The translations under genes were made by a program, and so were the position numbers. Under the pieces are notes generated by a model. It saw only the letters and a list, made by a program, of their open reading frames with translations, did not search any database and was not told where the DNA came from. From positions 17,255 through 81,254 of IMG/VR virus record IMGVR_UViG_3300024999_000075: a DNA stretch of 64,000 nucleotides; one strand, given 5' to 3'. Origin of the DNA: a virus. Shown in pieces: positions 5,790 to 48,279 of the stretch (positions are counted from its first letter, which is position 1; each line of letters opens with the position of its first letter).

Positions 5790-6352
5790 AGTTTTCTATA
5801 AAGATTGGCGGTGTAGATGTCTCAGCTAAGGGCAGCTCCAAGGCTGCTTTCAAGGAAGCTGAAAACGTCAGAAAGGAAACTGCTGAGTGTATTGCTGGAA
5901 TGGTGGCTGAGACCTTTGAGCAGATCCTTTTTAACGCACCTCAGTATACTGGCAACTTTGTCGCTAATATGGCTGTTCGGTCAGGACTCTCAGCTGGAGC
6001 TAAGGGTGGGGAAGAATATTTCTCTCATGTTTGGCCTATAGTTCCTCCTCAGGAGGTTTTTGAACGAGGCAAGATGCCAGCTATTGAAGCAGCTTTATCT
6101 GCTAATAAAAACATCGTCAAGAACCTTACTTCCCATATCGTCAAGCAGAGCGGCTGGATATCTGGTGTGACCATCTACAATCGCCTCAGTGACGCTGAGA
6201 TTGTCGAGAACCTTAATGCTATGCGCCTAAGAGATCCTAACGTTCCCGGTGCCCACCCAATGGCTAGGGGGGCTGCTTGGTTGGAGGCCATTGCCGGAAA
6301 GAAGATTGTTTACGGCTCACCTGAATTCCATGCTTATAGGATGAAAAGATGA
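5786..6352 (+). CDS. Neck / tail completion protein (HK97 gp10-like, putative)
   Basis: APQYTGNFVANM resembles the P-x-x-TG motif of HK97 gp10-like proteins; synteny. Confidence 0.6.
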   Translation: MKFSIKIGGVDVSAKGSSKAAFKEAENVRKETAECIAGMVAETFEQILFNAPQYTGNFVANMAVRSGLSAGAKGGEEYFSHVWPIVPPQEVFERGKMPAIEAALSANKNIVKNLTSHIVKQSGWISGVTIYNRLSDAEIVENLNAMRLRDPNVPGAHPMARGAAWLEAIAGKKIVYGSPEFHAYRMKR

Positions 6353-10378: not shown

Positions 10379-13300
10379 ATGACGATAGAGATTGGTGCAA
10401 ATACAACTCAGGCTCAACAGCAGATAGGTCAGCTGGAGAAGGCTATGGCTTTGATGGAGAGGAGAGTTGTAACCCTCTCTCAAGCCAACGTGGAATTGGA
10501 GAAATACACCAAGACACTCGAAGCAACTCAATCCAAACAGAGGGCAGCTACACTCTCCGCAGCTGACGCTCAGGCTAAATATGCAGCTGAGGCAATGAAG
10601 GGAGCTACTGCTGCTGAAAAATTAATTGGGATTGAGACTGCTGGATCAAGGCTTAACACACTTATTGCGAAGCAACTAGAAGAAAGGAATTCCTCACTAG
10701 CTGCACATAACGCATCTGTGTTGAAGGGTATTGATGCTGCTCAGAGGTTGATCGGGGTAGAGACCTCCGGAAGCCTGCTCAATAAACAGATCTACGAGCA
10801 GATGAAACTCCGACTTGGGACTCAGGAGGCGTATAATGCTTCTGCCCTCAAAGGGGCCGCAGCCGCAGAGAGGCTGATCGGGATTGAGACTTCAGGAAGC
10901 CTGCTCAATAAACAGATCTACGAGCAGATGAAACTCCGACTCGGGACTCAGGAGGCGTATAATGCTTCTGCCCTCAAAGGGGCCGCAGCCGCAGAGAGGC
11001 TGATCGGGGTAGAGACTTCAGGAAGCCTGCTCAATAAACAGATCTACGAGCAGATGAAACTCCGACTTGGGACTCAGGAGGCGTATAATGCTTCTGCCCT
11101 CAAAGGGGCCGCAGCCGCAGAGAGGCTGATCGGGATTGAGACTTCAGGGTTGAGGATGAATACGCTGATTGCTCAACAAATGAGAGATAGGTATGCTGAA
11201 CAAGACAAGTTAGAGAAAGGTAAAACAAAACTATCTGCTACTACCTCAAAGTTGGATAATGTAACTAATAGATATTCAGCTACAAGTAAAAATCTCCACG
11301 GAGCACTCAGAGGCACAGCAGGAGCCTTAGACCTCCTGTTCCTATCTTACGGTGCAGTCATACCGTTGGCAACAGCATTTGCAGCAGTGTCAACCTCAAT
11401 ACAGATTCAAAAGCTTGGGTCTTCTTTTGAATACCTTACTCAGTATGCTTACTCCATCTCTGACATGACTGTCAGTGTTCAGGACATGCGGAAAGAATTG
11501 CTAGCTATGAGAGAGCTTGCACAATCACCTGTTGAATTAGCAGAGGGACTGAAAGAATTAACCAAAGCTGGTATGGATGTGACTACTGCTCTCACAGAAT
11601 TGCCAACAGTAGCAAAGTTTGCAGCAATAGCAGAACAAGATCTGGCAGCTTCCACAGAGCAACTCATAACCTTACATTCAGCATTTAAAGAAACCACCAC
11701 TAACGCAACTGGAGGGATGATAACCCTGGCGGATACTGCCGATATAGTTGCTTCCGCTACTCAAGGGTCTGTAGCATCTTTCACTGACTTCCAAACTGCC
11801 TTAAAATACACTACAGCTCTAGCGAGTGTAGCAGACCTCTCATTGCAGGAGGTTTCAGCAGCTGCTATGTTGTTTGCTGACAAAGCTTTGAAGGGTTCCA
11901 TAGGTACAACAGCTATGAGGACTGCCATCACCAAGATGCTAGCCCCGACTGATGCTGTTAAACAACTCATGAAAGATGCAGGCATAGAATTTAACAAGTT
12001 CATATCTGGTGATAAGATCATGAGCTTGGAGAAGATGTTTGAGGAGTTGAATAGAATCAGAGAAACAATGTCCAGAGAGGAGTGGGCGAAGTTCTCGTTT
12101 AAGGCATTTGGTTTGAGGGGTGAGTTGGCTGAGGCAGCATTCACTAATCTCCCTAAGTTCCGAGAAAACCTAGATTTACTTTCAAAGTCTGCTGGGTTTA
12201 CGGCCAAAGCTTTCTCTGATCTGTCAGAGACAACTAAGATGCAGCTGAAATTTTTAGGGGATGAGATCAAGAACGCTTTGATTAAAGCCTTCGATGGAGA
12301 GAAAGCCACAGAAATACTCAAGGGGCTTAGAGTAATTGTATCTTCTCCAGAATTTATTAATGGTGTTGATGGGTTGGCTGTAGCTTTCTATAAGTTGGCT
12401 CAGACTCTTGTAGTGGTAGCTGACGCTGCTACAGAGTCTATAGGTACTATAGTAGATTATACCAAAGGTTTAGCCATAGCCTTTGCCTCAGAGGACAAGA
12501 CTTTCACTCAGTGGCTGACATCTAAGAGAGAGGGGATGAAGACTTGGATAGCTGAGTCTGAGTCTGGGTTGTCACAATATAAAGACCAATTGAAGATAGT
12601 TTCTGATGAAATAGCTCAGATCTCTAAGATCAGAGACCTAGAGATGGGGGATGGGGGTTGGACTGAATCCGCTGAAAAACAATTTCAAGCGCTGTTGAAA
12701 CAAAAACAAGGTATTGAAGGTAGTATAGAGGCGCTCAAGAACAAATCACAAGTTACCGTAAACGATACCGCTAAAACAGGAGAACTGACTACTGCCACTG
12801 CCATTGCTACTAAGGCCACTAATGATCATGCTGCCTCTGTGGATAAGTTGAGCGAGAAAGAAGAGAAGAAAATTAAAGTAGCTGAAGCCAGCCACCAAAA
12901 GCTCATCAGTTTGACCGAAGAGATGAATACTTTCATTGACAACTCAGGAGTCAAGACAACTGCCAATCAGCTGGAGAGAATAGAGAAAGAGCACAATGCC
13001 AGAGAAGCATCCATAAAAGCAGCAGTAGGGTCAGAGACAGAGAAGGCTGAAGCCCGTTTAGCTAATGATAAATCCTATGAGATAAAGCGACAAGGTGTTA
13101 TTGAAGAATCAGAAAAGACTATTCTCGCTAAGGAAGAGTCTTTCTTAGATCAGTTGGTTGAGTCGGGAAATTCAGCCTATGACAGAAAGCTAGCTAAATT
13201 AGAAAGTGCCTACGCTAAAGAGGAGGCGTGGATAGATAAGAATGTTGATGACTCTTTAAAGGCTGAGGAGTTGAAGTGGTTGAATTTTGAAGCATACGCA

Positions 13301-15628
13301 AAGAAAAAAATTGACCTCCAGACGGAGAGTAACGCCAAAGCCGTTTCCCTTGAGTCAGAGCTTCAAACTTATTTAGCTGTAGCTAACAATGATGTTCTCG
13401 CTAATAAACTCGCTGATCTGGATAAAGAATACAACAAACATAAGGCAGTAGTAGAAGCCATCATCGTTACTGAAGAGTTTTCTGCTGAGAGGAAGAAGCA
13501 GTTATCATCTGATGTTGCTGATTGGTACGCCAAAGAGCAGGAGCGAATCCAGAGGGACGCCTGGAAAACAGAGAAAGAGCAACTCTTGGCTCAAGAGACT
13601 ATGGCTGCTGGTTTTAAGGCTAGCCTGCTAGAGATGAAGAATGATGTTACTTCACTGGGTGATTTATCCTATAGCACTATGATAGGTGTAAGGGATACAT
13701 TCAGATCTGAAGTCGGAGATTTTCTCATCTCACAGTTTGGTGGAATTGAGGGAGCATGGGGATCTCTGTGGGATAACATGCTTGCTAAGTTTGGAGCAGT
13801 GCTGGCTGACATGGTAGCTCAGTGGGCGGCTAACGCTGTGTTCAACATGGTGTTCACCAGCAGTGGAGCAGCTGCCGGACAATCAAGTACAGGTGTTGCA
13901 GCTGGTACAGCTACTTCAGCTATTATAGATGCCTATGCTGAAAGTGATGCCACTTGGTTTAGTGATGCTTGGGACGCTGTTGAAACTTGGTGGGGTAGTG
14001 CCGATGGTGGGTATATAGCTGCTAATCCTAGAGGTGGTAGAATAAATGCTGGTACTGGGTTAAGCGATGATGTATTTCTGGGCTTCACAAATGGTGGGAA
14101 GACAGCTAATTACGGAATGGGTGGTGAATATATTATTAACAAAAAAGCCACTGCCAAGAATCTCCCTCTGCTGGAGGCTATCAACTCTGAGGGGTATGCC
14201 ACTGGTGGATTATATGACTCAGGTGTAACCGGTACTATGATTGGCCCAAAACCAGGAGGAGGGGGAGCGAAAAGTAGAGTATTTGAGAAGTTCAACGAGC
14301 TTGCTATCGCTATGCAGGGTGCTGGAATGTCTGCTGAAGATGTCAAGGATAAATTTAAAGATATGGCAGAGGCAACTAAAGATGCTGATTCTGTTATAGA
14401 AAAGAATAACAATGGCCTGAGAGACAACAGTACAACAACGCAGGCTGCTACTACTGCCACGAGTGAGCTGTCTAAAGCGCAAGATGTTGCTACCACAGCC
14501 TCTGTTGCTCAAAAGGAATCATCAATTTCTCTTGGTAGTGTTTTGTCAGGTGTAGCAACTCATGCCACTATGACTGCTGTAAAAATGGGGTCTGTTGCTT
14601 TAGCTTCAACTGTGTTAGGTCCGGTATTAGGTTCTTTAGCAGTTAAGTTGGGGACAACTACAACAGCCTATGAAGAATTTCAAGCAGTTGTTGAGGGATT
14701 TTTTGATAATACTTTTGGCGTAGATGCCGGGGTTGTATCGTCAGCTATAAGTACTGCCGCCGAAGATGCCTTCGGAGATATAGCCTCTATGTTTGGAGAT
14801 GCGACAGCAGGATTTGGTGAAGCAGCTGAAGGTTTAAGTGATTCTGCGTCAGCATTAAGTAATGCTGCCGAAGGTGCTCTTAGTAGTGCCTTAGATTCTT
14901 CTTCAGCACTAAGTAACGCAGCTGCTGGGGCTTTTGGAGAGACTAGCTTTGGGGCGCAGATGACTCAAGCGTCAGCAGAATCTCTAATGAGTTCAGCGTC
15001 AGCGTTGTCTTCATCTGCTTCATCCTTAGGGGGGGCGGCTGCGAGTATAGGTAGCTGGTCTCCTGGTATGAATCCCACCAATAACGCAGGTGGTGCTTTA
15101 GGCGATCCCGATATAGATAGTAGAGATAGAACTGATGACACTACTCCTGGAGGTCTTTTAGGCGGGGGCGGTGGGGGCGGGTCTAGTTCATCGTCTTCCG
15201 GAGGGGACAGTTTTAGTGCTCCTGACCCAGATAAAGGTAATGATCAATGGGCAAGCGGCGGCTGGCTTGCTTATGCTACTGGTGGCTGGCTTGGTAAACA
15301 CCCCAATGGAGGTTGGATTAACGGAGGATCTGGGAGAAGAGATGATGTCTTCCTTGGTTATACCAATGGTGGCTCCACAGCTAACTTCGGTATGGGTGGA
15401 GAGTTTGTCGTCAACCAGAGATCCTCAGCCAAATATGCTAAAGAGTTGGAGGGTATAAATAATAACACCATGAACACAGTAAATCAGCAAAAACAACCAC
15501 CAAATTTGACTATACCAGTGTATATTGGTAGTGAGTTGCTTACAACGCTGATCGTTGGAGTTGTTGATGATCAGTTCTCTGTACGGCAGCGCAACCCACA
15601 GGTAAAAGGAAGGTTGTACGCAAAATGA
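10379..15628 (+). CDS. Tape measure protein
   Basis: 1749 aa, Ala-rich helical; TP901-type core (SPVELAEGLKELTKAG, LKGSIGTTAMR); follows the chaperones. Confidence 0.92.
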   Translation: MTIEIGANTTQAQQQIGQLEKAMALMERRVVTLSQANVELEKYTKTLEATQSKQRAATLSAADAQAKYAAEAMKGATAAEKLIGIETAGSRLNTLIAKQLEERNSSLAAHNASVLKGIDAAQRLIGVETSGSLLNKQIYEQMKLRLGTQEAYNASALKGAAAAERLIGIETSGSLLNKQIYEQMKLRLGTQEAYNASALKGAAAAERLIGVETSGSLLNKQIYEQMKLRLGTQEAYNASALKGAAAAERLIGIETSGLRMNTLIAQQMRDRYAEQDKLEKGKTKLSATTSKLDNVTNRYSATSKNLHGALRGTAGALDLLFLSYGAVIPLATAFAAVSTSIQIQKLGSSFEYLTQYAYSISDMTVSVQDMRKELLAMRELAQSPVELAEGLKELTKAGMDVTTALTELPTVAKFAAIAEQDLAASTEQLITLHSAFKETTTNATGGMITLADTADIVASATQGSVASFTDFQTALKYTTALASVADLSLQEVSAAAMLFADKALKGSIGTTAMRTAITKMLAPTDAVKQLMKDAGIEFNKFISGDKIMSLEKMFEELNRIRETMSREEWAKFSFKAFGLRGELAEAAFTNLPKFRENLDLLSKSAGFTAKAFSDLSETTKMQLKFLGDEIKNALIKAFDGEKATEILKGLRVIVSSPEFINGVDGLAVAFYKLAQTLVVVADAATESIGTIVDYTKGLAIAFASEDKTFTQWLTSKREGMKTWIAESESGLSQYKDQLKIVSDEIAQISKIRDLEMGDGGWTESAEKQFQALLKQKQGIEGSIEALKNKSQVTVNDTAKTGELTTATAIATKATNDHAASVDKLSEKEEKKIKVAEASHQKLISLTEEMNTFIDNSGVKTTANQLERIEKEHNAREASIKAAVGSETEKAEARLANDKSYEIKRQGVIEESEKTILAKEESFLDQLVESGNSAYDRKLAKLESAYAKEEAWIDKNVDDSLKAEELKWLNFEAYAKKKIDLQTESNAKAVSLESELQTYLAVANNDVLANKLADLDKEYNKHKAVVEAIIVTEEFSAERKKQLSSDVADWYAKEQERIQRDAWKTEKEQLLAQETMAAGFKASLLEMKNDVTSLGDLSYSTMIGVRDTFRSEVGDFLISQFGGIEGAWGSLWDNMLAKFGAVLADMVAQWAANAVFNMVFTSSGAAAGQSSTGVAAGTATSAIIDAYAESDATWFSDAWDAVETWWGSADGGYIAANPRGGRINAGTGLSDDVFLGFTNGGKTANYGMGGEYIINKKATAKNLPLLEAINSEGYATGGLYDSGVTGTMIGPKPGGGGAKSRVFEKFNELAIAMQGAGMSAEDVKDKFKDMAEATKDADSVIEKNNNGLRDNSTTTQAATTATSELSKAQDVATTASVAQKESSISLGSVLSGVATHATMTAVKMGSVALASTVLGPVLGSLAVKLGTTTTAYEEFQAVVEGFFDNTFGVDAGVVSSAISTAAEDAFGDIASMFGDATAGFGEAAEGLSDSASALSNAAEGALSSALDSSSALSNAAAGAFGETSFGAQMTQASAESLMSSASALSSSASSLGGAAASIGSWSPGMNPTNNAGGALGDPDIDSRDRTDDTTPGGLLGGGGGGGSSSSSSGGDSFSAPDPDKGNDQWASGGWLAYATGGWLGKHPNGGWINGGSGRRDDVFLGYTNGGSTANFGMGGEFVVNQRSSAKYAKELEGINNNTMNTVNQQKQPPNLTIPVYIGSELLTTLIVGVVDDQFSVRQRNPQVKGRLYAK
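10743..11148 (+). repeat. 126-bp (42-aa) tandem repeat, about 3.2 near-identical copies within TMP
   Basis: gatgaaactc recurs at 10801, 10927 and 11053. Confidence 0.95.
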
Positions 15629-18881: not shown

Positions 18882-19433
18882 ATGAAACACTTACTGGTTA
18901 TTTTATCTTTACTGCTGCTATCAAGTTGCGCTACCCACACCGCAACTAACGAACTTATTGCTAAGGCAAACACAAATAGGTTGAAGGAGTTTGCGTCAGG
19001 TGTAGCAGCCTGTAACGATAACGCTGCCTGCCAAGTTGCAGTCTCTATGGCCTTTGCTGGAAACATGGGGCAGCAGCCATACTTCCGAGAGGACTCCCCA
19101 CTTGACTATGTGAAAGCATCTGGTTTCATTCTTGGGCCTGCGGTTGATATTTTAAGATTGTATAAAACTACGACAAGTGGGGATGCTGCCGGTGTTGTCA
19201 TTGCTGGTGACAATAACCAAATTGTGGGTATGAATAAGCTGACTGCCGACAACCAGAGTACTCTTACTGGAACATTTGACACTACTTCTAGTATTGAACA
19301 CCTTGTATATACTCAAGACTCTACACAGTCTTCCTCAAACGGTAATGGATTAGTAGAAAATGTTGAGAACCAACAGGATACATACTCAGGCGATTCAGCC
19401 TTAGCAGGAAATAAGGAGGTGCCAGTTGAATAA
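18882..19433 (+). CDS. Lipoprotein (possible spanin-like or exclusion lipoprotein)
   Basis: MKHLLVILSLLLLSSC: type II signal peptide with lipobox LSSC. Confidence 0.7.
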   Translation: MKHLLVILSLLLLSSCATHTATNELIAKANTNRLKEFASGVAACNDNAACQVAVSMAFAGNMGQQPYFREDSPLDYVKASGFILGPAVDILRLYKTTTSGDAAGVVIAGDNNQIVGMNKLTADNQSTLTGTFDTTSSIEHLVYTQDSTQSSSNGNGLVENVENQQDTYSGDSALAGNKEVPVE

Positions 19434-19737
19434 TACAATCATAAGTTGGGTGATAAAGTTCCTAGCCAAAATGCTTAATGGGAAGAAGGCTTACATAGGT
19501 GCTGGTGGTGAGATGCTCACTGGTGTAAGTTCCATTATAGTTGGGATCACTGGTATTATTGGTTATGCTTATCCTGACCTCAAACTGCCAGCTATTGAGA
19601 TTGAGTATTCCTTGGCAGCTATAACAGCTGGAGCAGGTATGATAACTGATGGATTCAAGGGTATAGGGTTACGCCATGGAATTGAAAAAATCACTGCTGA
19701 AAACAGGGCTGAAGATAACCTTCCGCCTGCCAATTAA
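19426..19737 (+). CDS. Holin-like membrane protein
   Basis: LNGKKAYIG start, two hydrophobic segments, GLRHGIEK C-terminus. Confidence 0.55.
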   Translation: MNNTIISWVIKFLAKMLNGKKAYIGAGGEMLTGVSSIIVGITGIIGYAYPDLKLPAIEIEYSLAAITAGAGMITDGFKGIGLRHGIEKITAENRAEDNLPPAN

Positions 19738-19843
19738 CTGGGAAGAGGGGCTATGGGCTAGGATCAAGTCACTCTTTGAAGTCAAAACTTTTAAGAAGTA
19801 ATGACAGTCCAGCCATGTTATACTCTAGGCTATCAATTAACTT

Positions 19844-20191
19844 ATGAGGCCAGAATACATGTTTGACAAAATACCTGGACTTGAAAATGTTGAAGCTGTC
19901 TTCGGACTTCTCGCTGCCAGTGGTGGAATAGCTAGGATCGTTACTGGAACAAGTAACGATCCTAGAGTTTCTTGGTGGGGAGAGTTAGGTAGGGTTGTCT
20001 TTGTTGCCATGCCCATTGGTGTGATAGCTGGCCACTGGGTTACTTCCATCTCAGAGTCTGAGATCCTTCCCTACGCCGCCAGCTTCACTGCTGGCGTTAT
20101 TAGCCTGAATATCGTTCGTTTCCTGTTATCCGCCGAAGGCTTCAGCATGATTAGAACCTTTATTGGGGGCGGTAAGAATGGAAAATCGTAA
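19844..20191 (+). CDS. Holin-like membrane protein (about 3 TM)
   Basis: Three hydrophobic segments; AASGGIAR motif; basic C-terminus. Confidence 0.6.
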   Translation: MRPEYMFDKIPGLENVEAVFGLLAASGGIARIVTGTSNDPRVSWWGELGRVVFVAMPIGVIAGHWVTSISESEILPYAASFTAGVISLNIVRFLLSAEGFSMIRTFIGGGKNGKS

Positions 20192-20408
20192 TCTAATCAC
20201 TCAACTCTTTATAACCTGGTTATTTTACAACTGCGCTCTAATTGCTGTGCTGTGGCTTACTTGCTGGAGTTTTGGTCGGGAAGAGTACGAGACAGTGGTA
20301 GCTATGATGATTTTCTCGTTTGGGGTTAGTGTTATAGAATATGATTGGTGGGCGTTAAAGAATAACAGATATGAGAGACGAAAGACAAGGAGGCAGAGAG
20401 TTGGCTGA
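20178..20408 (+). CDS. Small 2-TM membrane protein
   Basis: Two hydrophobic helices and a very basic tail. Confidence 0.5.
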   Translation: MENRNLITQLFITWLFYNCALIAVLWLTCWSFGREEYETVVAMMIFSFGVSVIEYDWWALKNNRYERRKTRRQRVG

Positions 20409-20676
20409 ATATTGTACGTTGTTTTGGGACAAACCATTAGGAGTAGATATTAGTGATCTTTGTTATGATCATGACGCTGCTTATGGAACTGGTAAGTTTA
20501 CGTTAAAATTAATTGGTGATTTAGACTTGGCCAGAGGGATCTGGAACAGATCTAGTAGAGCTGATTCACTGTTAAAAAATATAGGTTTGAAATCAATAGC
20601 TGTTGGAGCATATGCAGTAACCTCCACAGTTGGAATATTTTTCTGGGTAAAGGGGATTAGCAATGGCAATAACTAA
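20401..20676 (+). CDS. Phospholipase A2-like / DUF1353-like protein
   Basis: YCT..D....DLCYDHDAAY...GDLDL motif; probable TTG start after AGGAGG. Confidence 0.55.
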   Translation: MAEYCTLFWDKPLGVDISDLCYDHDAAYGTGKFTLKLIGDLDLARGIWNRSSRADSLLKNIGLKSIAVGAYAVTSTVGIFFWVKGISNGNN

Positions 20677-20953
20677 TGTGATTAATGGTGTTCAAGCCGC
20701 TGTAGATGTAGCTGCCGCTACTGCTTTTCCAGTTACTGGTCCTACTACCATTACTGCTGATGGCTTCGCTATTGGGGAGTTCGCTCAAGTGTTTAGGCTT
20801 GGTCCTAATGCTGCCTACTCAGCCGCTACTAACAAAGACGGCTACATCATCTTATCTGTCTTCCCTAACATGGCGCTGATTGACACACCAGGGTCTTATA
20901 AGATCATTAAGACAGCTACTGTTGCTGCTGCCTATGTAGGATATGAGGCTTAA
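20663..20953 (+). CDS. Small structural beta protein (hypothetical)
   Basis: 96 aa, Ala/Thr-rich. Confidence 0.55.
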   Translation: MAITNVINGVQAAVDVAAATAFPVTGPTTITADGFAIGEFAQVFRLGPNAAYSAATNKDGYIILSVFPNMALIDTPGSYKIIKTATVAAAYVGYEA

Positions 20954-20955
20954 GG

Positions 20956-21462
20956 ATGTTTGGGGCGACTTACAGAGCCTTTAGAAGGAGCGTCGATGCT
21001 GTGTCAGGCAGTAAGGGTGGCGGTTTATATTTGCCTGTAACTGGTCTTGTTGGTGCCTGGTTGGTAGAAAATGATTTGACCGATTCTATCGGCATATCAA
21101 GCATCACGCTGACTACTGGTACAGTCGATGATCTTGCCAATGCATCGTGGGCTATGCCCTCTGATGCCGTAACGATTCAGGCAGACTCTGATATGGGCGG
21201 AGACGTGTTTTTCGATTCGGCAAATGCAATGGCCCCGATAGTGAGGTTTGGTTATGAGTGGTACGCCCTGCTCAACAATGATTTTGTCTGGATTGGTTTC
21301 CACCAATCACGTGGTGGGATTGTAATTTACAGCGCGGATAAATCAGCGCAGGCGAACAGAATACAAGACTACCTTGGCAGGTATGCACCTGATGCTACGT
21401 TCGTTGTTGATGGTGGCGATTTTGTCGTTGATGGCTCAGACTTTATAACTGATGGAGTTTAA
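20956..21462 (+). CDS. Hypothetical structural protein with LamG-like fragment
   Basis: LVGAWLVENDLTDSIG resembles a LamG start; C-terminal FVVDG repeat. Confidence 0.45.
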   Translation: MFGATYRAFRRSVDAVSGSKGGGLYLPVTGLVGAWLVENDLTDSIGISSITLTTGTVDDLANASWAMPSDAVTIQADSDMGGDVFFDSANAMAPIVRFGYEWYALLNNDFVWIGFHQSRGGIVIYSADKSAQANRIQDYLGRYAPDATFVVDGGDFVVDGSDFITDGV

Positions 21463-21465
21463 AAT

Positions 21466-22857
21466 ATGAAAAAGATATTTCCCTTAATATTTACCCTGCT
21501 TCTTGCTGGGTCATGTCTAGCCGCAAACGATGACATATCAGACCGACCAGAACTCGGAACTGCTACCAGTTCTGATTCGCTGCTTGGGGTTGACGCCTCT
21601 GCCGCAGCTGGGGATAGACTCCGCAGAATACTTTTCCAGGGCACAAATGGGTATGTCCTGGCGGGTAACGGTACATGGTTTGACCTCACAACTGCTCTAG
21701 TCGGAAAACAGGATGTTTCCGCCCTAGTCGGAATCGAAGCCCGCACCGGCTTAACCTACACCCCAGCAGCGGGCGAAAATCCGGCATATCTCGACCTTGA
21801 CGACACCGCAGTAACCCCAGCAGCTTACACCAATGCAAATATCACGGTTGATCAGCAAGGTCGGGTTACGGCTGCTGAGAGCGGCACTGGTGGGACGGGC
21901 ATTACGGAGGTCGCAACATTACCCAATCCTCTTGTTGATGGTACTTTTTATGCGGCAATTGATACAGGTGATTTCACCTATAAGTCTTCAACGGGCTCCT
22001 ACACGATCACTGGCGCATACACCCCAGATGCAGCGACGTATTCGATGACGCTAACCATAGCCGACCTTGATGCAACAGGTGATACTTTCACCGTCGCTAG
22101 TGTCCCATACGATGTCGCGGATTCGCCGGCTGTAATCTCTGGTTTAAATTCCGCAACTGAAGCAATCACATATACCGGGAGCAATACCGCCGATTGTACC
22201 GGAACTGCAGTAACGGGCGCGGGACCATGGGCCGTTGATATGTCCGACAGTAATGAGTCGGTGAGTTGTTCGATTTCCGTTACTCCTGGCATTTCCGATG
22301 ATTTCACCGCCGATCAGCTCGCTACTAAGTGGGTTGCTGATCAGGGAACCTATACAGTATCAGGCGGCGTGCTCAACGCCCCGGCAAGTGCTGCCCAACT
22401 GCGTTATGCAACGGCCACAGGAACCATAGATCAGTATGCGAAAATTAAATACACCGATTCGAACTCCGGCGATGGCGGTGTCCTGCTCCGTGAGACGGGG
22501 GCCAGTGGGTATAAGTATAAAGTGTACTACAAAGCCTCGTCAAGCTATCTCCAATGGCAGGTATATAATGGTACAGCATGGTCGGCAAACGTAGGCAATA
22601 CAACGACATTTACGCTCAATGCGGGCGATACTATCGGGTGTACCGTAACTGGTACAGGTGATGACACTATAGTTCGCGCCTGGATAAATCCCGTAGCCAA
22701 TGCACCCACGGATATCAGTAGTTGGGATGGTGAGAGCGATGACGCCGATTATACACTGATCAATAATCCCGTTAACCCCGCAAACACAGGGCTGTACATA
22801 GGTATATCCACTACGACCTCCAGGACATTTGATGATTTTTACGGAGGTTCGAAATGA
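21466..22857 (+). CDS. Signal-peptide-bearing fibre-like protein with C-terminal lectin-like beta sandwich
   Basis: MKKIFPLIFTLLLAGSCLA signal peptide; VTPAAYTNANITVDQQGRVTAAESG fibre motif; SDDFT...FDDFYGG domain. Confidence 0.6.
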   Translation: MKKIFPLIFTLLLAGSCLAANDDISDRPELGTATSSDSLLGVDASAAAGDRLRRILFQGTNGYVLAGNGTWFDLTTALVGKQDVSALVGIEARTGLTYTPAAGENPAYLDLDDTAVTPAAYTNANITVDQQGRVTAAESGTGGTGITEVATLPNPLVDGTFYAAIDTGDFTYKSSTGSYTITGAYTPDAATYSMTLTIADLDATGDTFTVASVPYDVADSPAVISGLNSATEAITYTGSNTADCTGTAVTGAGPWAVDMSDSNESVSCSISVTPGISDDFTADQLATKWVADQGTYTVSGGVLNAPASAAQLRYATATGTIDQYAKIKYTDSNSGDGGVLLRETGASGYKYKVYYKASSSYLQWQVYNGTAWSANVGNTTTFTLNAGDTIGCTVTGTGDDTIVRAWINPVANAPTDISSWDGESDDADYTLINNPVNPANTGLYIGISTTTSRTFDDFYGGSK

Positions 22858-25790
22858 TTAAGTGGATTGTTACAATACTGATCACTCTTATTCAGTCATC
22901 GGCATTTGCCGTTACGGTGCCACTAACAGTCCAGGAGCGATATAGCACAAACAGGACGGATGCACATATCACCTATGGTGTTCCATTCGCCAAGGGCGAC
23001 AATATCCTGTCAACCGCGAATCTTGGAATAGCCGGGGAAGATGCACAGTTCAGGGTTTTATCTCGGTATGATGGCCCTCCGACCGACACAGACAAGCCAA
23101 TCAGGATGGTGCTGGTTGACTTTCAAGATTCGATTGTTGCGGATGCGGCCAATAGCTATACTCTGAGCGATTCAGGCCAGGGAGCGGTAGCGGGGAATGA
23201 TCTTGCTATTGATCGCTCAACATACGTGGAGATTGATACCGGAGCTGTCAATGCCAGGATCAGTAAAACTTCTGGTAATATTTTTGAAAATATTTGGATA
23301 GGTGGTGTTGCCGCCATATCATCCCCGACAGCGGATAAGTGGGTAATCGTTTATAACAGCACTACATATTTCTCTTCTCCGACAGCGATAACCATCGAGG
23401 AAAACGGCCCCCTTCGCTGCGTCGTGAAGGTCGATGGGGTGTTTAAGGATGCCACTAACAATAGCTTAATTCCACCAGTGACCAGGATCGGCGAGACTCC
23501 TGACACACCGATCAAATATACCATTAGATATACCGCCTATAAAAACAAAGGGTACATCAAACTCCAGGCTACATTGCGCAACGAGAATCTTGGCTGGGCC
23601 TATAATTCAGCCCAAGCGACTCACAACATAAGCATCACCGAATCATACCTCAAAACAACCATGGATGGGCTTGCAAGCTCAAAAACTGTGGCCTTCAGCG
23701 GGTACAGTGATTCGACGACATCCGATACATACGAGCTATTGCAACAGGAAACATCTGACGGCACAGCACAATCCTATACGTGGGCGTATGCAATTAATAA
23801 AAACGCCTCTCCGGTCGCAACCGGAACCAAATATGATAGCTATGCGGACCTGCGAGATGCCCAAATAGGTTTAATGGTTGCAGACAGATGGTTCTGGCAG
23901 AATCATCCCATTGGAATCACGATATCAGGGAACCAAATAAAATTTAACCTTTGGCCCGATACCGGGACCGCTCATCGCATTATCGGCGGTATCTGGAAAA
24001 CGCACGAACTCTTGTATTATTTTCACGGAACCGACGCCTCTTTTGATGACGAGTTGGCGCATATTAAGAAAAGACTCATCGCCAGGGCATCGGACGAGTA
24101 TTACGCTAATACAAATTTTGTCTGGGGGATGTTACCAGAAACAATAACATCAAACTATACGTTTCCCGCCGGGGAGCATTTTCAGTATGTGATTGACGCC
24201 CAGGCTCAATATCATAGAGCACTGTTTGACGCGGATTATATTGATCCTGGCAACACCTACACGCCGAACACATTCGATATGTTGCGAGATGGGCGTATGG
24301 TCAAACTGACAGCGGCACCGATATATTCGACATGGTACGGATGGCTGGAGTTCGGTGCGATGCCGTTGACGGCTGGGTATGGGTATCATAATCAGCATTA
24401 TGATTACACCTTCCTTGCGCTGTCTGGTTTTTTGAGATTCGACGACTACAACATGCTTGATATCGCGGAAGAATTACTGCAACACAAGGCTGATATTATA
24501 ACCATACATGATCCTGACGCGCCAAGTACAGACGCAGGATACGGCTATCACGGAGGGCAGAGATACGAGACCGATTCGCTGTTTTCGTACTATGCGGATT
24601 ACAGCATTAGCGGAAAATCCGATCCGAGAAAATCAGGCCATGCGTGGTCAAAGGGGATGCAGCTACAGTACTTATTGACCGGCAACCAACTGTACCTCGA
24701 TGTCGTCGAGCAAATGGGGTTGCATATCCGCAGGCAGCACCAGACTCCAATGTTTAAAACTGCTGAGACTCGTAATCAGTTTCGGGGTATTGACATACTC
24801 GTCAACGAATATCAACTCACCGGGAACCCGTCCGATATTGATGCAGCATGGGATTTACTGGAAAATTCCCTACTGATTGCCGAGGGCGGGGATTGCACGA
24901 ACAGAGACGTATTTACAACCTGCACACCTGATGACACGGCTGGATGGATACCTAACGGGTATGTCAACCAGTATGATTTTGGGGTTGGCGGTGATGCCTG
25001 GATGGTCGAGCCTTTGCTGAAATTTTATTATCTATTGCTGAGCGAAGGAGAGACAACAAAGGCCAGTACTCTCAAGGATTTTTTCCTGCGCTGGGCACCG
25101 ATCATCGAGACGATGATCAACATCGAGGGCGACCAGGGGACATACAGATACGATAACGCTGAGTACATGCCGTATGTCGGCAGAATCGGCTACTATGTCG
25201 GTGTTGGCTATTCGACCTACGGGACCAATTACACCAATATCAACTACGCATATTTGCAACCATATTCGGAACTGTTCACCTTCCTGTACTTGAACGCGCC
25301 GAGCAACAACCAGCATTATCTAGATGTTGCGATGAACATCGAAAAGGACTGCCGAATTTACACATCAACAGCCGATGTTTTTTATCCTGTATCTGACGAT
25401 ACTATTGCAAAGATCGGAGGGTTTCAAACCGCTCAGTCCATTACTTCAGGATCGTTTAAAATACCAAAATTCCTGACGAAATCAACATTACTGTTGCGGA
25501 CCATATCAGGGCTGAGTGCGGTGCCGGATGATCCAGTGTGTGATTCGAGCCACCTGTCGCTGTGCGCATCGGAAAACTGTGCCGGGGCTGGGGGAAATTG
25601 GTGTACCGATGTTTGCCAAGTGGCAGCCTGCGAGGCAGAACCGACCTGCGCTGACCTAACTCAAAACGGCGATGAAACGGGGATCGACTGTGGCGGTTCA
25701 TGCCCTAATGACTGTTCCGCGCCCGCAGGGTGGCGATCAGTGTTTATGATTAATGGCGATGCTGTCCAACTTATTGAGGAAACACCATAA
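22854..25790 (+). CDS. Secreted PcRGLX/YetA-like (PL26-like) polysaccharide lyase fold protein with Cys-rich tail
   Basis: Signal peptide (SAFA); ITYGVPF, FRVLSRY, VLVDFQ, EENGPLR, FWQNHP, QHKADI motifs; C-terminal QNGDETGIDCGGSC. Confidence 0.6.
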   Translation: MIKWIVTILITLIQSSAFAVTVPLTVQERYSTNRTDAHITYGVPFAKGDNILSTANLGIAGEDAQFRVLSRYDGPPTDTDKPIRMVLVDFQDSIVADAANSYTLSDSGQGAVAGNDLAIDRSTYVEIDTGAVNARISKTSGNIFENIWIGGVAAISSPTADKWVIVYNSTTYFSSPTAITIEENGPLRCVVKVDGVFKDATNNSLIPPVTRIGETPDTPIKYTIRYTAYKNKGYIKLQATLRNENLGWAYNSAQATHNISITESYLKTTMDGLASSKTVAFSGYSDSTTSDTYELLQQETSDGTAQSYTWAYAINKNASPVATGTKYDSYADLRDAQIGLMVADRWFWQNHPIGITISGNQIKFNLWPDTGTAHRIIGGIWKTHELLYYFHGTDASFDDELAHIKKRLIARASDEYYANTNFVWGMLPETITSNYTFPAGEHFQYVIDAQAQYHRALFDADYIDPGNTYTPNTFDMLRDGRMVKLTAAPIYSTWYGWLEFGAMPLTAGYGYHNQHYDYTFLALSGFLRFDDYNMLDIAEELLQHKADIITIHDPDAPSTDAGYGYHGGQRYETDSLFSYYADYSISGKSDPRKSGHAWSKGMQLQYLLTGNQLYLDVVEQMGLHIRRQHQTPMFKTAETRNQFRGIDILVNEYQLTGNPSDIDAAWDLLENSLLIAEGGDCTNRDVFTTCTPDDTAGWIPNGYVNQYDFGVGGDAWMVEPLLKFYYLLLSEGETTKASTLKDFFLRWAPIIETMINIEGDQGTYRYDNAEYMPYVGRIGYYVGVGYSTYGTNYTNINYAYLQPYSELFTFLYLNAPSNNQHYLDVAMNIEKDCRIYTSTADVFYPVSDDTIAKIGGFQTAQSITSGSFKIPKFLTKSTLLLRTISGLSAVPDDPVCDSSHLSLCASENCAGAGGNWCTDVCQVAACEAEPTCADLTQNGDETGIDCGGSCPNDCSAPAGWRSVFMINGDAVQLIEETP

Positions 25791-25836: not shown

Positions 25837-25989
25837 ATGAAAATAACATTAATAATAGTGACATTGTTTATCATTATCTCTGCGTGTTTACACCAGTGGC
25901 ACCAAGCTGTAGTAGCGCAAGATCTACATGATACCCTACAACTGAAAGCCTACTATGAGCGGATGGCCAGGGAGTATCCCGCCCAATGA
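25837..25989 (+). CDS. Small single-TM protein upstream of endolysin
   Basis: MKITLIIVTLFIIISAC hydrophobic N-terminus; ATGA overlap with the endolysin. Confidence 0.45.
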   Translation: MKITLIIVTLFIIISACLHQWHQAVVAQDLHDTLQLKAYYERMAREYPAQ

Positions 25990-26492
25990 CAGAACAAGAT
26001 AAAAAACTCCTGGCCTTCACCTTCATGTATGATCACGAAGGTGGGACCAGTTATGATGTCAATGATCGTGGTGGTCTTACGAGATTCGGTATCTGCAAGA
26101 AACAGTACCCGGATGTGGACATAGCCAATCTTACCAAAGAACTAGCTGATCAGATCTATACCAGAGACTACTGGCTAAAGAACAAATGTCACCTGATGCC
26201 TGCTCCCATAGCCATAGTTGTATTTGATTCCTCTGTTAACTGTGGTGTTGGCTCCGGCGCGACCTGGCTCCAAAAAGCTATTAACTCTCAGGGTGACAAT
26301 ATTAAAGTGGATGGTGTAATAGGACCAATGACTCTAGCCAAATTAGACAGTTGTAACCCTCACAATATAGCTGGTAAGATAATAGCTTATCGTCTTAGAA
26401 GATACTCCAAACTCATCTCCAGAGATCCCAGTCAGAGGGGGTTTATAACTAGCTGGATAAACAGAGCTGCTGACCTTCTTGAATATATTTAG
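25986..26492 (+). CDS. Endolysin, glycoside hydrolase family 108 with PG-binding domain
   Basis: HEGG..DVNDRGGLTRFGI, IYTRDYW, VFDSSVNCG, VDGVIGPMTL, WINR. Confidence 0.92.
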   Translation: MTEQDKKLLAFTFMYDHEGGTSYDVNDRGGLTRFGICKKQYPDVDIANLTKELADQIYTRDYWLKNKCHLMPAPIAIVVFDSSVNCGVGSGATWLQKAINSQGDNIKVDGVIGPMTLAKLDSCNPHNIAGKIIAYRLRRYSKLISRDPSQRGFITSWINRAADLLEYI

Positions 26493-26538: not shown

Positions 26539-27399
26539 ATGATGAGAAAACATTTAGTCATCCCTGACACTCAGATCACGCCCACCTCCCCTAAAGACCA
26601 CCTCTCCTGGATCGGTCAGTACATCCTTGAAAAGAAGCCTGATGTCATAGTCAACCTTGGAGACTTTGCTGATATGGAAAGTCTCTCCAGCTACGACAAA
26701 GGTAAGCTTAAGGCTGAGGGCAAAAGATACAAGAAAGATATTGAAGCTGCCAAGGAAGGCATGGAGCTTCTGCTTGGCCCTATGCGTAGGTATAATGCCA
26801 GGAGGAAGACGTGCAAGAAGAAAGGGTATAACCCTGAAATGCACCTAACTATTGGTAATCATGAACAAAGAATCACAAGGGCTGTTGAGTCTGATGCTGC
26901 TATGGAAGGCTTCATGTCTATTGATGATCTTGAGTATGAGAAATTTGGCTGGCAAGTACACCCTTTCTTGGAAATTGTTGAATTAGATGGAATTAGTTAT
27001 TCTCACTACTTTTATAACCCCTTATCCGGTCGCCCTTATGGAGGATATTCAATTGACACTATGCTCAAAAATCTCGGCTTCAGTTTCGTACAGGGGCATA
27101 GACAACAGTATCTAGTAGGTAATAGATCACTCAATAACGGACGAATAATTCGCGGTTTAATCAATGGTTCCGCGTACTTACACAATGAGGATTATCGTGG
27201 GCCTCAAGCTAACGGGGAAATGAGAGCAGTTTTTCTCCTGCATGAAGTAGACGAAGGTAATTACATGCTCACCGAAATCTCCCTCGATTTTCTGTGTAGG
27301 AAGTATGAGGGAGTCCATCTGTGGCAGTTCATGAAAAATAAATATCCAGAGATATACAAGCAGTCACCTTGGATGGTAAGGCAGGAGACTAGAAGTTGA
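26539..27399 (+). CDS. Calcineurin-like metallophosphoesterase
   Basis: IPDTQ, GDFAD, GNHE, SHY, GHRQ motifs. Confidence 0.85.
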   Translation: MMRKHLVIPDTQITPTSPKDHLSWIGQYILEKKPDVIVNLGDFADMESLSSYDKGKLKAEGKRYKKDIEAAKEGMELLLGPMRRYNARRKTCKKKGYNPEMHLTIGNHEQRITRAVESDAAMEGFMSIDDLEYEKFGWQVHPFLEIVELDGISYSHYFYNPLSGRPYGGYSIDTMLKNLGFSFVQGHRQQYLVGNRSLNNGRIIRGLINGSAYLHNEDYRGPQANGEMRAVFLLHEVDEGNYMLTEISLDFLCRKYEGVHLWQFMKNKYPEIYKQSPWMVRQETRS

Positions 27400-27426
27400 G
27401 GGGAGTATTCCCTCCCCTCAAATTTT
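27396..27426. terminator. Hairpin terminator at the convergence of the two arms
   Basis: ttgaggggag-tattcc-ctcccctcaa. Confidence 0.7.
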
Positions 27427-33072: not shown

Positions 33073-34043
33073 AATTTTACCTCCTCACGAAATTCTTCCA
33101 GTACATTTTCTAGGAGTAACCCCAGAATATTGAAGCCAGTAACCTCTTCCTTGTCTATCACCTCTCTTTCTTTTACTGTGACTTTGACAGCATTTGTGAT
33201 AACAAAAGCACTACTGGTCTTCCGTAGTTGCGCAATAGAGCGAACAACCGCAGGATATTCAACAACTTCGCAGTCTCCCACGACCCTAATAAAATGGTGG
33301 TCTATACTCTTAATCTCCGACCAGTGCATTTCAACGTAATCTCTTTCCACATTCCAAGTTTCTATGGACTCGAAAGTTTTGGCTTCTGAATCGTAGACCA
33401 AGCATTGCTTGGAACCAGATAAGCAGTCAGCAACTGAGGTTGGCCAATGACAACCAACTATGTGTAGCTGTTCCAAATCTCTCTTTCCGTGCTCGTGGCC
33501 CAGCACTAGCTCAATTCCTCTGGCCTTCAGCTTCTGATACTGGTCTGTACTAAGATTCAATGAATGGTCAGCATGTTCAGCAAATGAGTTTGCAAAATTG
33601 CAATGCATGAAGCAAACTACGTTGTCTGGAATCTCTTCTACGTACTTATTGAATTGCTCCTGATCAAATACATGTGGGAGGAAATACATCCCTTGAATTA
33701 ACTCTGGAACATGGAAAACCAAATATGTATGTGGTAGCAAAGCACCAACCAATTCTAGACTTGAGATCTCACCTGGCTTGTGGCTTAGACTATCATGATT
33801 ACCTCTTAAGATTATAGCGTTCTCTTGCCGTAGTGCCAGATAAGAATTGAGGATTGCCTTGTCACCAGCTGAGTATCTGGCGAAGAAGTCTCCTACAATT
33901 ATCAAGCAGTCATGAGGAACTGTCTCTATCGTGTGTCTAAGTCTATCGAAAAGGTGGTCGTCTAAAGCAATACGGGATTGGTTTGTTGTCCCTCCGACCC
34001 TTTCAGGTGCTATGTGTGTGTCACTAAGTATTAGGTATCTCAT
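33063..34043 (-). CDS. sbcD: SbcD/Mre11-like nuclease subunit
   Basis: SDTH, VGDFF, GNHD, GHEH motifs; adjacent to the SbcC-like gene. Confidence 0.88.
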   Translation of the reverse strand: MRYLILSDTHIAPERVGGTTNQSRIALDDHLFDRLRHTIETVPHDCLIIVGDFFARYSAGDKAILNSYLALRQENAIILRGNHDSLSHKPGEISSLELVGALLPHTYLVFHVPELIQGMYFLPHVFDQEQFNKYVEEIPDNVVCFMHCNFANSFAEHADHSLNLSTDQYQKLKARGIELVLGHEHGKRDLEQLHIVGCHWPTSVADCLSGSKQCLVYDSEAKTFESIETWNVERDYVEMHWSEIKSIDHHFIRVVGDCEVVEYPAVVRSIAQLRKTSSAFVITNAVKVTVKEREVIDKEEVTGFNILGLLLENVLEEFREEVKLCI

Positions 34044-34905
34044 TCATTCCTCCACTCCTGAATTTGATGTGGTAAATTGTTGTCTATTATAAATTGGTTT
34101 CTAGTCTCAAGAGCTAGTTCTTTACTATGAAATCTACCAAGATATATTAACCTCTTCTTTTTTAAGGCAGCATAACCGATATAAGAAACCCACATCCCAT
34201 CTAACTTACTATAGGATACTCCAGTATACCCAGAGGTATTACTCTTCATCCTCCCTCTGTTAATAACATTTAGAGAGTGATTGGTAAACCAACAGTTTTC
34301 AGGACAGTAGTTGCCATCATTATCCTTCCTGTCTATTTCTAGGTGGTCTTCATATCCGTTAGCCTCGGCCCAGTTATCGAATGCCTCGAAAGAAGACCTC
34401 CATTCATCACAGACAGCGATTCCTCTTCCTCCATACCTGTCGAAACGGGTGTTATTACTATCAGTACATCTCTGTATAATATTACGCCACATTGTGTATA
34501 TCCTCTCGTAACACTTATTGTGGGAGAGTTTTAGCATACCAGTGACCTCTTTACGCAAACAGCCACATGACTTAGAATCACCGGATTTTAAGCCTGACAT
34601 GTAAACTTCAACTTCGTTACCGCAGTCACATCTACACAGCCATGTAATGTGCTTTTTAATGGTCTTAGCACGGCGCAATACCACCAATCTGCCAAACCTC
34701 TGCCTGCCCAAATCTACAAACTTATTAGTGCTGGCACACCCACATGATTTTGTATGACCTCTCCGCAAACCTCCAGTTGTAGCCAAGGAAGTTTCCCACA
34801 GTCGCATTTACACAGCCACTGAACTTTCTCTCCTCTATTCTCTACTTTACTTACCACTGTCAACTTACCGAACTTTTGACCCACAAGATCTATTAACTTC
34901 ACCAC
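34040..34905 (-). pseudogene. HNH-AP2-type homing endonuclease split by a frameshift near 34795
   Basis: DLVGQKFGKLTVV...WLCKCDCG in one frame continues as LRRGHTKSCGC...IDRKDNDGNYCPENC...NTSGYTGV in the -1 frame. Confidence 0.75.
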
Positions 34906-48189: not shown

Positions 48190-48279
48190 TTATTTCCAAG
48201 ATGGAAACTTATTACGCCATTTCCTAGCTGTCCACCCTATAAATATTCCGACTGCCAAAGCAATTAAATCTCCAATCAT
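48190..48279 (-). CDS. 29-aa single-TM peptide coupled to the TAXI gene
   Basis: MIGDLIALAVGIFIGWTARKWRNKFPSWK; ATGA overlap. Confidence 0.45.
   Translation of the reverse strand: MIGDLIALAVGIFIGWTARKWRNKFPSWK

Follow-up and report, generated by a model that had tools for sequence, protein, structure and literature searches.

Tailed-phage virions are built in the cytoplasm. Why, then, would the late genes of a tailed phage encode a fibre-like protein and a large enzyme that both start with a secretion signal, and where would these proteins act? This question is raised by a cassette of four genes, encoding the proteins p96, p168, p463 and p978, in the viral record IMGVR_UViG_3300024999_000075 of IMG/VR (81,254 bases, with an estimated completeness of ~57%). 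The stretch analyzed here, called the window, comprises 64,000 nucleotides (positions 17,255 to 81,254 of the record), and its plus-strand block 66-27399 is the late operon of an uncultured siphovirus. The original prediction, made from the letters alone, had proposed that the two large proteins are exported to the periplasm and then either join virions at lysis through the two small ones or are released. The present analysis leads us to consider the cassette as the host-surface-glycan gear of this phage, produced as exported proteins. The four open reading frames (ORFs) are indeed present, co-oriented with the tail and lysis genes and tightly packed or overlapping. However, the interval between the holin-like genes and the endolysin gene contains six ORFs instead of the four that had been announced, p101 and p78 having been missed. 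The cassette comprises the following features:

20663-20953, plus strand: p96, small, with no leader and no family match
20956-21462, plus strand: p168, candidate adaptor, leaderless, with a conserved domain of ~120 amino acids (aa) and C-terminal tandem repeats (VDGxDF x3)
21466-22857, plus strand: p463, 463 aa, with a Sec leader and fibre-like domains
21466-21522, plus strand: signal peptide of p463 (residues 1-19), found by the leader heuristic, with predicted cleavage CLA↓AND
21523-21795, plus strand: mature N-terminal domain of p463 (residues 20-110), with homology to the very start of fibre proteins that lack a leader
21790-21900, plus strand: fibre repeat motif of p463 (residues 109-145), common to 79 viral loci
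22027-22335, plus strand: middle beta domain of p463 with a conserved Cys pair (residues 188-290), common to the fibre partners in loci L006 and L085
22318-22857, plus strand: C-terminal ConA-like beta-sandwich of p463 (3-keto-disaccharide-hydrolase/LamG type; residues 285-463), as predicted by an Atlas model
22854-25790, plus strand: p978, 978 aa, with a Sec leader, a PcRGLX-like body and a Cys-rich tail
22854-22910, plus strand: signal peptide of p978 (residues 1-19), found by the leader heuristic, with predicted cleavage AFA↓VT
22911-25520, plus strand: body of p978, a PcRGLX-like three-domain fold (two beta-sandwiches and an alpha/alpha toroid) according to Pfam, AlphaFold2 and Foldseek
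25521-25790, plus strand: C-terminal tail of p978 (residues 890-978), with 10 Cys including the mini-domain PTCADLTQNGDETGIDCGGSCPNDC and a terminal segment ending in IEE

Leaders were identified with a home-made and crude heuristic that looks for a positive n-region, an uncharged hydrophobic h-region of ~8-15 residues and small residues at positions -3/-1. As had been claimed, both large proteins display the canonical n/h/c regions of a Sec/signal peptidase I (SPase I) signal peptide: p463 starts with MKK / IFPLIFTLLLAG / SCLA↓AND and p978 with MIK / WIVTILITLI / QSSAFA↓VT. Shine-Dalgarno sequences (GGAG / GGAGG) lie 7-8 nucleotides ahead of the p463 and p978 ATGs, and the next in-frame Met is encountered only after ~200 residues in p463 and ~80 residues in p978. 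Furthermore, the stop of p463 overlaps the start of p978, indicating translational coupling within the late tail-lysis operon. Considering ORFs of at least 150 aa, the heuristic detected leader-like N-termini in 4 of the 48 ORFs of the phage record, with a background of 18/571 across 77 other viral loci. Among the relatives of p463, P0029, P0030, P0035 and those of L086/L087 have diverged leaders and a junction that remains fixed before ANDD(I/V)SDRP.LGTAT; in P0038, a lipobox and a linker replace the SPase I leader. A large protein collection provided 26 relatives of p978, and the heuristic found a leader in 20 of the 27 members of this family. Four of the seven misses have a hydrophobic N-terminal segment and an AXA-type site when judged by eye, two are seemingly truncated at the N-terminus and the last one (P0027, the weakest match) was left unjudged. 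The canonical leaders, their maintenance at the same junction despite diverged sequences, the lipobox relative and a Cys mini-domain in p978 all agree with the export originally proposed. Judging from these sequence features, p463 and p978 are very probably exported via Sec to the periplasm, and the oxidative folding of their Cys pairs and of the mini-domain is the likely reason for this export. Since the secretion signals are carried by a fibre-like protein and a large enzyme, this host-surface gear would most likely mature outside the cytoplasm.

By sequence comparison, p463 is a fibre-like protein, homologous to phage fibres in its N-terminal domain and its shaft repeat. Over 133 columns, its residues 20-152 share 39% identity (E = 1.7e-14) with residues 2-109 of P0053, a protein without leader; P0053 and similar proteins match phrog_38058 (tail fiber). 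The N-terminal domain, which appears as an invariant block in alignment A3, is the best-conserved part of p463. The tail-fibre motif mentioned in the original prediction was retrieved widely: 97 stretches of IMG/VR encode a relative, of which 79 loci were retained, and the motif is also found in the leaderless gp030 of Synechococcus phage S-CBS2, annotated as 'structural protein'. Only 2 of the 55 distinct motif-bearing ORFs of the 79 loci carry a leader, so that a leader on such a protein is unusual. One of these two is a 683-aa protein with a Bacteroidota-style leader (…LLS↓QAQ; L057, 4705-6756). The terminal beta-sandwich that had been announced is found in the Atlas structure (ConA-like/PF06439, TM-score 0.71-0.77), a model of low confidence that is to be taken as a lead only; our own AlphaFold2 monomer model does not help in this respect, as its overall predicted local distance difference test (pLDDT) value is 49.8, with residues 188-290 reaching 70-81. 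On the basis of these models, the tip may be lectin-type and the C-terminal domain likely binds sugar. p463 is the sole fibre-like ORF of the 81-kb record, which is ~57% complete.

The PcRGLX/YetA-like fold that had been attributed to p978 was recovered by two approaches. The protein matches Pfam PF21345, the PcRGLX central sandwich (2.4e-9, 37.1 bits for a cut-off of 23.5), and residues 20-889, modelled by AlphaFold2 with a 21-member family alignment (pLDDT 80.8, predicted template modelling score 0.85), give as top Foldseek match the structure 5xqo over the full length (E = 3.4e-22, TM-score 0.56/0.61). This structure is one of those of PcRGLX (5xqo, 5xqg, 5xq3), the PL26 exo-rhamnogalacturonan lyase of Penicillium chrysogenum, which shares with p978 the whole-length fold and the Pfam central domain but only 12-14% identity; the profile of the 21-member family matches no PDB sequence at E <=0.01. 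From the model, p978 would thus be a fold relative of PL26 and not a PL26 member at the sequence level. Among the viral models of BFVD, a single and moderate match to this fold was found (E = 6.7e-9, TM-score 0.37/0.47). The substrate surely differs from that of PcRGLX, being bacterial exopolysaccharide (EPS) and not pectin.

The Cys-rich tail of p978 also stood up to examination, with 10 Cys in the last ~85 residues. It is unique to p978 within the family, being absent at the C-terminus of the other 26 members, and a tail of this type is also found on unrelated leader-bearing enzymes of L007, L085 and L089. Its core (C.D..QNGDETG.DCGGSC..C), often in tandem, also occurs in proteins sorted by the type IX secretion system (T9SS), in CBM2 proteins and in VanW proteins of Patescibacteria, which points to a generic extracytoplasmic module. 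It supports an extracellular life of p978, as far as sequence can indicate. Only when the mini-domain is combined with a terminal stretch of ~20 residues does the tail become typical of these phage enzymes; the copies of the window, L007 and L085 all end in IEE. We had at first considered the tail as a docking module specific to the cassette, and this proposal was weakened by the occurrence of the mini-domain in T9SS, CBM2 and VanW proteins.

A search of reference genomes for p978 homologues identified three loci, in a Desulfobulbus metagenome-assembled genome (MAG), a Desulfotignum MAG and Desulfobulbus alkaliphilus DSM 24258. In all three (L002, L003 and L004), the homologue is embedded in an XrtA/PEP-CTERM exopolysaccharide locus, and the neighbouring genes include those encoding GT4 transferases, an XrtA/PEP-CTERM amidotransferase, an exosortase-associated (Wzy-like) ligase, a flippase, heparinase II/III, a PEP-CTERM protein and an MshEN protein that binds cyclic di-GMP (c-di-GMP). 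All these homologues from Desulfobulbales EPS loci carry leaders. In the two Desulfobulbus genomes (L002, 5312-12667; L004, 2935-10858), the homologue comes after a conserved trio, in which the c-di-GMP-binding MshEN protein is accompanied by a PKD/H-lectin protein of 938-1006 aa and a PKD protein of 331 aa. The possibility that homologues would exist only as isolated bacterial genes, raised beforehand as a reason to abandon the prediction, is half verified for p978: the three reference loci are bacterial EPS loci, yet one other viral contig (L005) encodes a 950-aa homologue (35% identity, Pfam 2.9e-9), which is one of five leader-bearing proteins encoded in a row after tail-fibre-like genes. 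From these comparisons, we strongly infer that p978 was captured from a host XrtA/PEP-CTERM EPS locus and then fitted with a Cys-rich tail of extracellular type; it likely inherited its periplasmic way of life from the host EPS enzyme. A host origin of the whole cassette was also considered and dropped, because relatives of p96, p168 and p463 are missing beside the bacterial p978 homologues in the three loci.

For the other three proteins, PHROGs, Pfam and NCBIfam contain no family, and the Atlas contains nothing at >=0.9 for p168. Among cultured phages, blastn of the cassette and tblastn of p978 and p168 gave no match, and p463 was matched only through a fibre motif of 35 residues. A full HMMER scan nevertheless identified 36 relatives of p168. 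About half of them are stand-alone proteins (118-187 aa); the others are leaderless proteins of 446-963 aa that carry the domain at their N-terminus. Of 16 p168-domain proteins scanned, five include a GDSL/SGNH esterase and one a LamG domain. This architecture suggests that the p168 domain is an anchor domain on sugar-active phage proteins. The stand-alone proteins end in two to three short tandem repeats (VDGxDF, NPDxS, LEM, TFQ, FPY/FPF types) that vary between loci in step with the N-terminus of the product of the next gene.

Relatives of p168 were found in seven loci of IMG/VR, including the duplicates L091/L092, which makes eight distinct loci with the window and L085. The gene next to the p168-family gene encodes a leader-bearing protein in five of these eight loci (window, L085, L088, L091 and L093; background 18/571), and at least one of the next two genes does so in seven of them. 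In L094, the gene after the p168-family gene encodes a protein without leader, with matches to tail, tail-fibre and tail-spike PHROGs. In L086/L087, p168-like C-terminal VDGSDF repeats are carried by a different upstream body, which is followed by the same domain starting at leader↓ANDD. Since they are kept jointly on a different upstream body, the C-tail of p168 and the N-terminal domain of p463 travel together, possibly because they dock, or simply because one recombination block contains both. Four other loci show part or all of the arrangement:

L085 (3.8 kb): p168 homologue at 90% identity; fibre resembling p463 (64% over residues 1-280, diverging further on); another enzyme, with a leader
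L007: no upstream gene entry; leader-bearing fibre (33% over residues 1-250); 670-aa leader-bearing enzyme
L006: no upstream gene entry; lipobox-bearing fibre partner (residues 188-290 at 59%); enzyme of 647 aa with a leader and a Cys-rich end of related type
L089: p168-like gene; leaderless fibre; leader-bearing enzyme (32% identical to the L006 enzyme) with the mini-domain

The last ~50 residues of the L085 enzyme are 52% identical to the tail of p978, and the L007 enzyme, which has a sub-threshold DUF5123 match, carries a p978-type tail at 55%. Therefore, by sequence comparison, the order p168-type protein, fibre, leader-bearing enzyme with a p978-type tail is recurrent in other uncultured phages, with swapped enzyme bodies. 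This recurrence had been named beforehand as a test of the prediction. The proposal that virions are joined through the small proteins fared unequally: p168 as adaptor gains indirect support from the architecture of its family and from the co-conservation of the junction, and p96 gains none. A gene encoding ~100-145 aa precedes every p168-like gene (L085, 1-189; L088, 5555-5914; L089, ~5560-5915; L090, 5579-5959; L091, 4311-4667; L094, 5483-5917), with related pairs in L088/L094 (71%) and L085/L090 (E = 9e-7); p96 has no significant similarity to these small genes preceding p168-like genes elsewhere. The recombinase genes found beside related cassettes had suggested a shufflon, which was rejected as they encode ordinary integrases at prophage ends.

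How would exported proteins serve the phage? The reading that we prefer, with a probability that we put at roughly 0.45 and that rests on sequence comparisons, is that they dock on virions at lysis via p168. Transcription of the cassette would occur late, along with that of the tail and lysis genes, Sec would carry p463 and p978 into the periplasm and their leaders would be cut off, the export serving the oxidative folding of the Cys pairs and of the mini-domain. Both proteins would then wait in the periplasm until the action of holin and endolysin mixes the compartments. At that point, the conserved N-terminal domain of p463 would dock on the tandem-repeat C-tail of the leaderless p168, itself sitting on the tail like the anchor domain of one-piece tailspikes, and p978 would ride on p463 through its conserved C-terminal tail, so that the finished virion would carry a lectin fibre and an EPS-cutting enzyme. 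We chose this reading because of the fibre N-terminal domain, the anchor-type family of p168, the co-travelling junction, a mosaic that resembles those of host-range determinants, the late and coupled expression, and the annotation of one cultured phage, described below. In a more general form, which we hold for possible without being probable, tailed phages of several lineages would finish their particles in two compartments, an exported lectin fibre and an interchangeable glycan-cutting enzyme, both folded oxidatively in the periplasm, snapping at lysis onto a p168-type adaptor carried by a tail of cytoplasmic origin, and the cassette would move as a unit and set host range.

The cultured phage is Cellulophaga phage phi18:3 (NC_021794; Pachyviridae), whose consecutive genes gp085, gp086 and gp087 encode proteins of 547, 785 and 559 aa with leader-like N-termini according to the heuristic. 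GenBank annotates them as 'virion structural protein', 'structural protein' and 'tail protein', respectively, each 'based on experimental MS/MS proteomics analysis' (MS/MS, tandem mass spectrometry), and four small, partly membrane-protein genes separate them from a downstream gene encoding a PG_binding_3-type endolysin (PF09374). As in the window, large leader-bearing proteins are thus encoded beside lysis genes. However, phi18:3 has a Bacteroidota host, a cleavage seemingly following the Q-rule and no p168-type gene, and no sequence similarity to p463, p978 or p168 was found. Because of this MS/MS annotation as virion or tail proteins, gp085-087 constitute a cultured test case for export-tagged virion parts. 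A second comparison concerns the anchor-and-branch receptor-binding modules of tailed phages, in which a conserved virion-anchor domain carries swapped distal domains. Like them, the cassette lies at the end of a tail operon and its enzyme or lectin bodies are swapped between junction modules that are conserved, and p168-type domains are fused elsewhere to esterase or lectin bodies. In contrast, the conserved module of the cassette enzyme is C-terminal and its fold is that of PcRGLX and not a beta-helix; to our knowledge, the anchor-and-branch modules known so far have no signal peptides and are assembled in the cytoplasm.

Several points weigh against docking on virions. Since virions are built in the cytoplasm, the exported parts could meet them only at lysis. 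Three fibre-like partners (P0038 and those of L006 and L088) have a lipobox; it would tie them to a membrane, which fits an envelope-bound role better than a virion role. The position of the cassette varies as that of a moron does: after the portal gene (L093), beside integrase genes (L088/L089/L091/L094) or before the terminase gene (L007). Among the 36 members of its family, the p168 domain is never fused with the N-terminal domain of p463, and the mini-domain of p978 is a generic extracellular module that is not specific to the cassette. As the bacterial homologues of p978 are leader-bearing enzymes of EPS loci, its leader may be merely inherited, with the enzyme possibly keeping the action that it has in the host. 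Other fibres may exist in the missing part of the record, which is only ~57% complete, and the MS/MS annotation of phi18:3 could reflect co-purifying envelope material.

Some of these points fit nearly as well with another explanation, less probable in our opinion but a serious one, in which p463 and p978 are exported, never join the virion and act in the periplasm late in infection or after release. They would cut host exopolysaccharide, whether nascent or surrounding, helping progeny to escape from the floc or biofilm matrix and from debris (a receptor-destroying function), and strip neighbouring cells for the next round of infection, p168 being a separate cytoplasmic or virion protein with a purely genetic linkage. 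The leader-bearing p978 homologues of XrtA/PEP-CTERM EPS loci speak for it, as the phage copy would work like the host enzyme. They recall AlgL, PslG, PelA and BcsZ, periplasmic glycanases or lyases encoded inside bacterial EPS operons: in both cases, leader-bearing enzymes are found inside EPS loci. These enzymes differ from p978 by their fold family, and the phage p978 has gained a Cys-rich tail and a fibre partner. Furthermore, p978 itself has no virion-anchor domain, its mature start running straight into the PcRGLX-like sandwich as in the bacterial homologues. The lipobox variants of the fibre partner and the run of five consecutive leader-bearing proteins including the p978 homologue of L005 go in the same direction. 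According to the available part of one report, depolymerase activity around plaques is known in free form (PMC6116005). However, free enzymes would leave unexplained the leader grafted exactly onto an N-terminal domain that otherwise starts leaderless fibres, the fact that this domain is the best-conserved part of p463 and its co-travel with the C-tail of the upstream leaderless protein; they also do not account for the annotation of the leader-bearing phi18:3 proteins as found in virions.

It is improbable that the exported fibre and enzyme form an envelope-resident moron, i.e., that they stay on the envelope of the infected or lysogenic cell and remodel or mask the glycan receptor (superinfection exclusion or lysogenic conversion), to the benefit of the host-phage pair and not of the particle. 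The location of cassettes at prophage ends beside integrases (L088, L089, L091 and L094), the lipobox variants and the presence of other exported proteins encoded by the window phage are in its favour. Bacteria also possess exported trimeric fibre adhesins, such as the mosaic adhesive trimer (MAT) fibres of Bdellovibrio bacteriovorus, described in the available part of PMC10769870 as having a signal peptide, a conserved N-terminal domain, a trimeric fibre and swappable tips. In having a signal peptide ahead of a conserved N-terminal domain, these phage-fibre-like proteins, which work outside the cytoplasm, resemble p463, but they are encoded by chromosomal genes of a predator and displayed on its cell surface. 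However, the window genes are coupled in a late tail-lysis operon, in a phage that has its own polymerase, ligase and nucleotide kinase and no integrase in 81 kb; late expression is poorly suited to exclusion and the domain swapping resembles host-range gear. Lastly, although the leader calls rest on a home-made heuristic and cytoplasmic folding is the textbook expectation for tailed phages, it is very improbable that the leaders have no function in export (serving in assembly or as membrane tethers, or resulting from a misplaced start codon) on proteins folding in the cytoplasm like ordinary fibres and tailspikes, given the full n/h/c architecture with small -3/-1 residues kept through divergence at a fixed junction, the signal peptidase II (lipobox) variants, the Shine-Dalgarno sites directly before leader ATGs with no other in-frame Met for ~200 (p463) or ~80 (p978) residues, the same leaders on bacterial p978 homologues and the extracellular-type Cys mini-domain of the p978 tail.

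The late operon around the cassette has the following organization:

1520-2710, plus strand: protease/scaffold and major head protein, ahead of the tail genes
Between the head genes and the tape measure gene, plus strand: tail genes and chaperones
10379-15628, plus strand: tape measure protein, 1749 aa
15625-18732, plus strand: four small unassigned genes after the tape measure gene
18882-19433, plus strand: lipoprotein, 183 aa (lipobox LLLSS↓C), between the tail-tip genes and the membrane-protein genes
19426-20408, plus strand: three membrane proteins of 103, 115 and 81 aa with 1-3 hydrophobic segments, candidate holins
20371-20676, plus strand: p101, which belongs to phrog_6098 (function unknown) and has a C..HD..Y motif and, at its C-terminus, a hydrophobic segment
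25753-25989, plus strand: p78, with one hydrophobic segment; overlaps the start of the endolysin gene
25986-26492, plus strand: endolysin (family matches GH108 and PG_binding_3)
After the endolysin gene, plus strand: metallophosphoesterase, at the end of the late operon

The gene encoding the 183-aa lipoprotein occupies the same place, between the tail-tip and membrane-protein genes, as that of the exclusion lipoprotein Llp of T5; the likeness is positional only and homology to Llp was not shown. The three membrane proteins match no Pfam or PHROG family at threshold, their best Pfam match being the LydA holin (E = 0.081, 13.5 bits for a cut-off of 28.4). The C..HD..Y motif of p101 is, in our view, reminiscent of phospholipase A2 active sites. 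A phrog_6098 relative of p101 (9.3e-15) is located directly after the exported cassette in L005 (17812-18081), and a p101 look-alike, judged by eye, is found in L006 (13005-13505). p78 has a possible lipobox (IISA↓C) if translation begins at an internal Met (25837), and the heuristic scan found no leader on the endolysin. No strong terminator-like site was detected within the cassette. The strongest one of the region (19932-19965, a hairpin with a perfect stem of 14 bp and a T-rich stretch) lies within the gene of the 115-aa membrane protein, and the best terminator-like hairpin outside any ORF is found past the end of the operon (27396-27421).

Beyond the late operon, the minus strand encodes a dNMP kinase, a ligase, SbcCD-like proteins, a DNA polymerase and a helicase; no integrase was found within the 81-kb record. 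Three genes encoding HNH-type endonucleases are scattered over the head, tail and replication modules (2759-3313, minus strand; 8172-9392, plus strand; 34040-34807, minus strand). The early/replication region also encodes a 273-aa leader-bearing protein (48276-49097, minus strand), whose match to TAXI-family TRAP solute-binding proteins stays below threshold (TIGR02122, 1.6e-17, 63 bits for a cut-off of 84); it may correspond to an auxiliary uptake gene. A 55-aa ORF with a lipobox is present at 57670-57837 (minus strand).

The literature that we searched, which did not include subscription journals and supplements, gave no account of tailed phages that export their fibres or depolymerases via Sec; the Sec-exported phage proteins reported there are endolysins, exclusion or lysis proteins. 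The Llp lipoprotein of T5 is a Sec-exported exclusion protein. The available part of PMC6116005 describes other phage proteins that take the host Sec route before lysis, Lys44 of fOg44 and the signal-arrest-release (SAR) endolysins. All these are lysis or exclusion proteins, and are not fibre- or depolymerase-like as those of the cassette are. The nearest paper, as far as its available part goes, reports leader-bearing phage genes of unknown function in Porphyromonas phages (PMC10367356). What is new here is the leaderless p168-type partner family, the conserved partner-fibre junction, the common C-terminal tail on swapped enzymes and the PcRGLX-fold enzyme from an XrtA/PEP-CTERM EPS locus.

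Those who annotate genomes, mine them for depolymerases or engineer phages presume that receptor-binding proteins fold in the cytoplasm; for Cys-rich fibres and enzymes of the cassette type, cytoplasmic expression would fail. With gp085-087 of phi18:3 as a cultured handle, the question becomes testable by ordinary proteomics. If the parts stay free, the phage would have captured an enzyme of a host EPS locus and would export it before lysis so as to open up the matrix of the floc or biofilm, which would bear on phage spread in sediment and groundwater biofilms. If the exported parts reach virions, they would be an exception to the rule of wholly cytoplasmic assembly of tailed phages, and lysis would double as the last assembly step.

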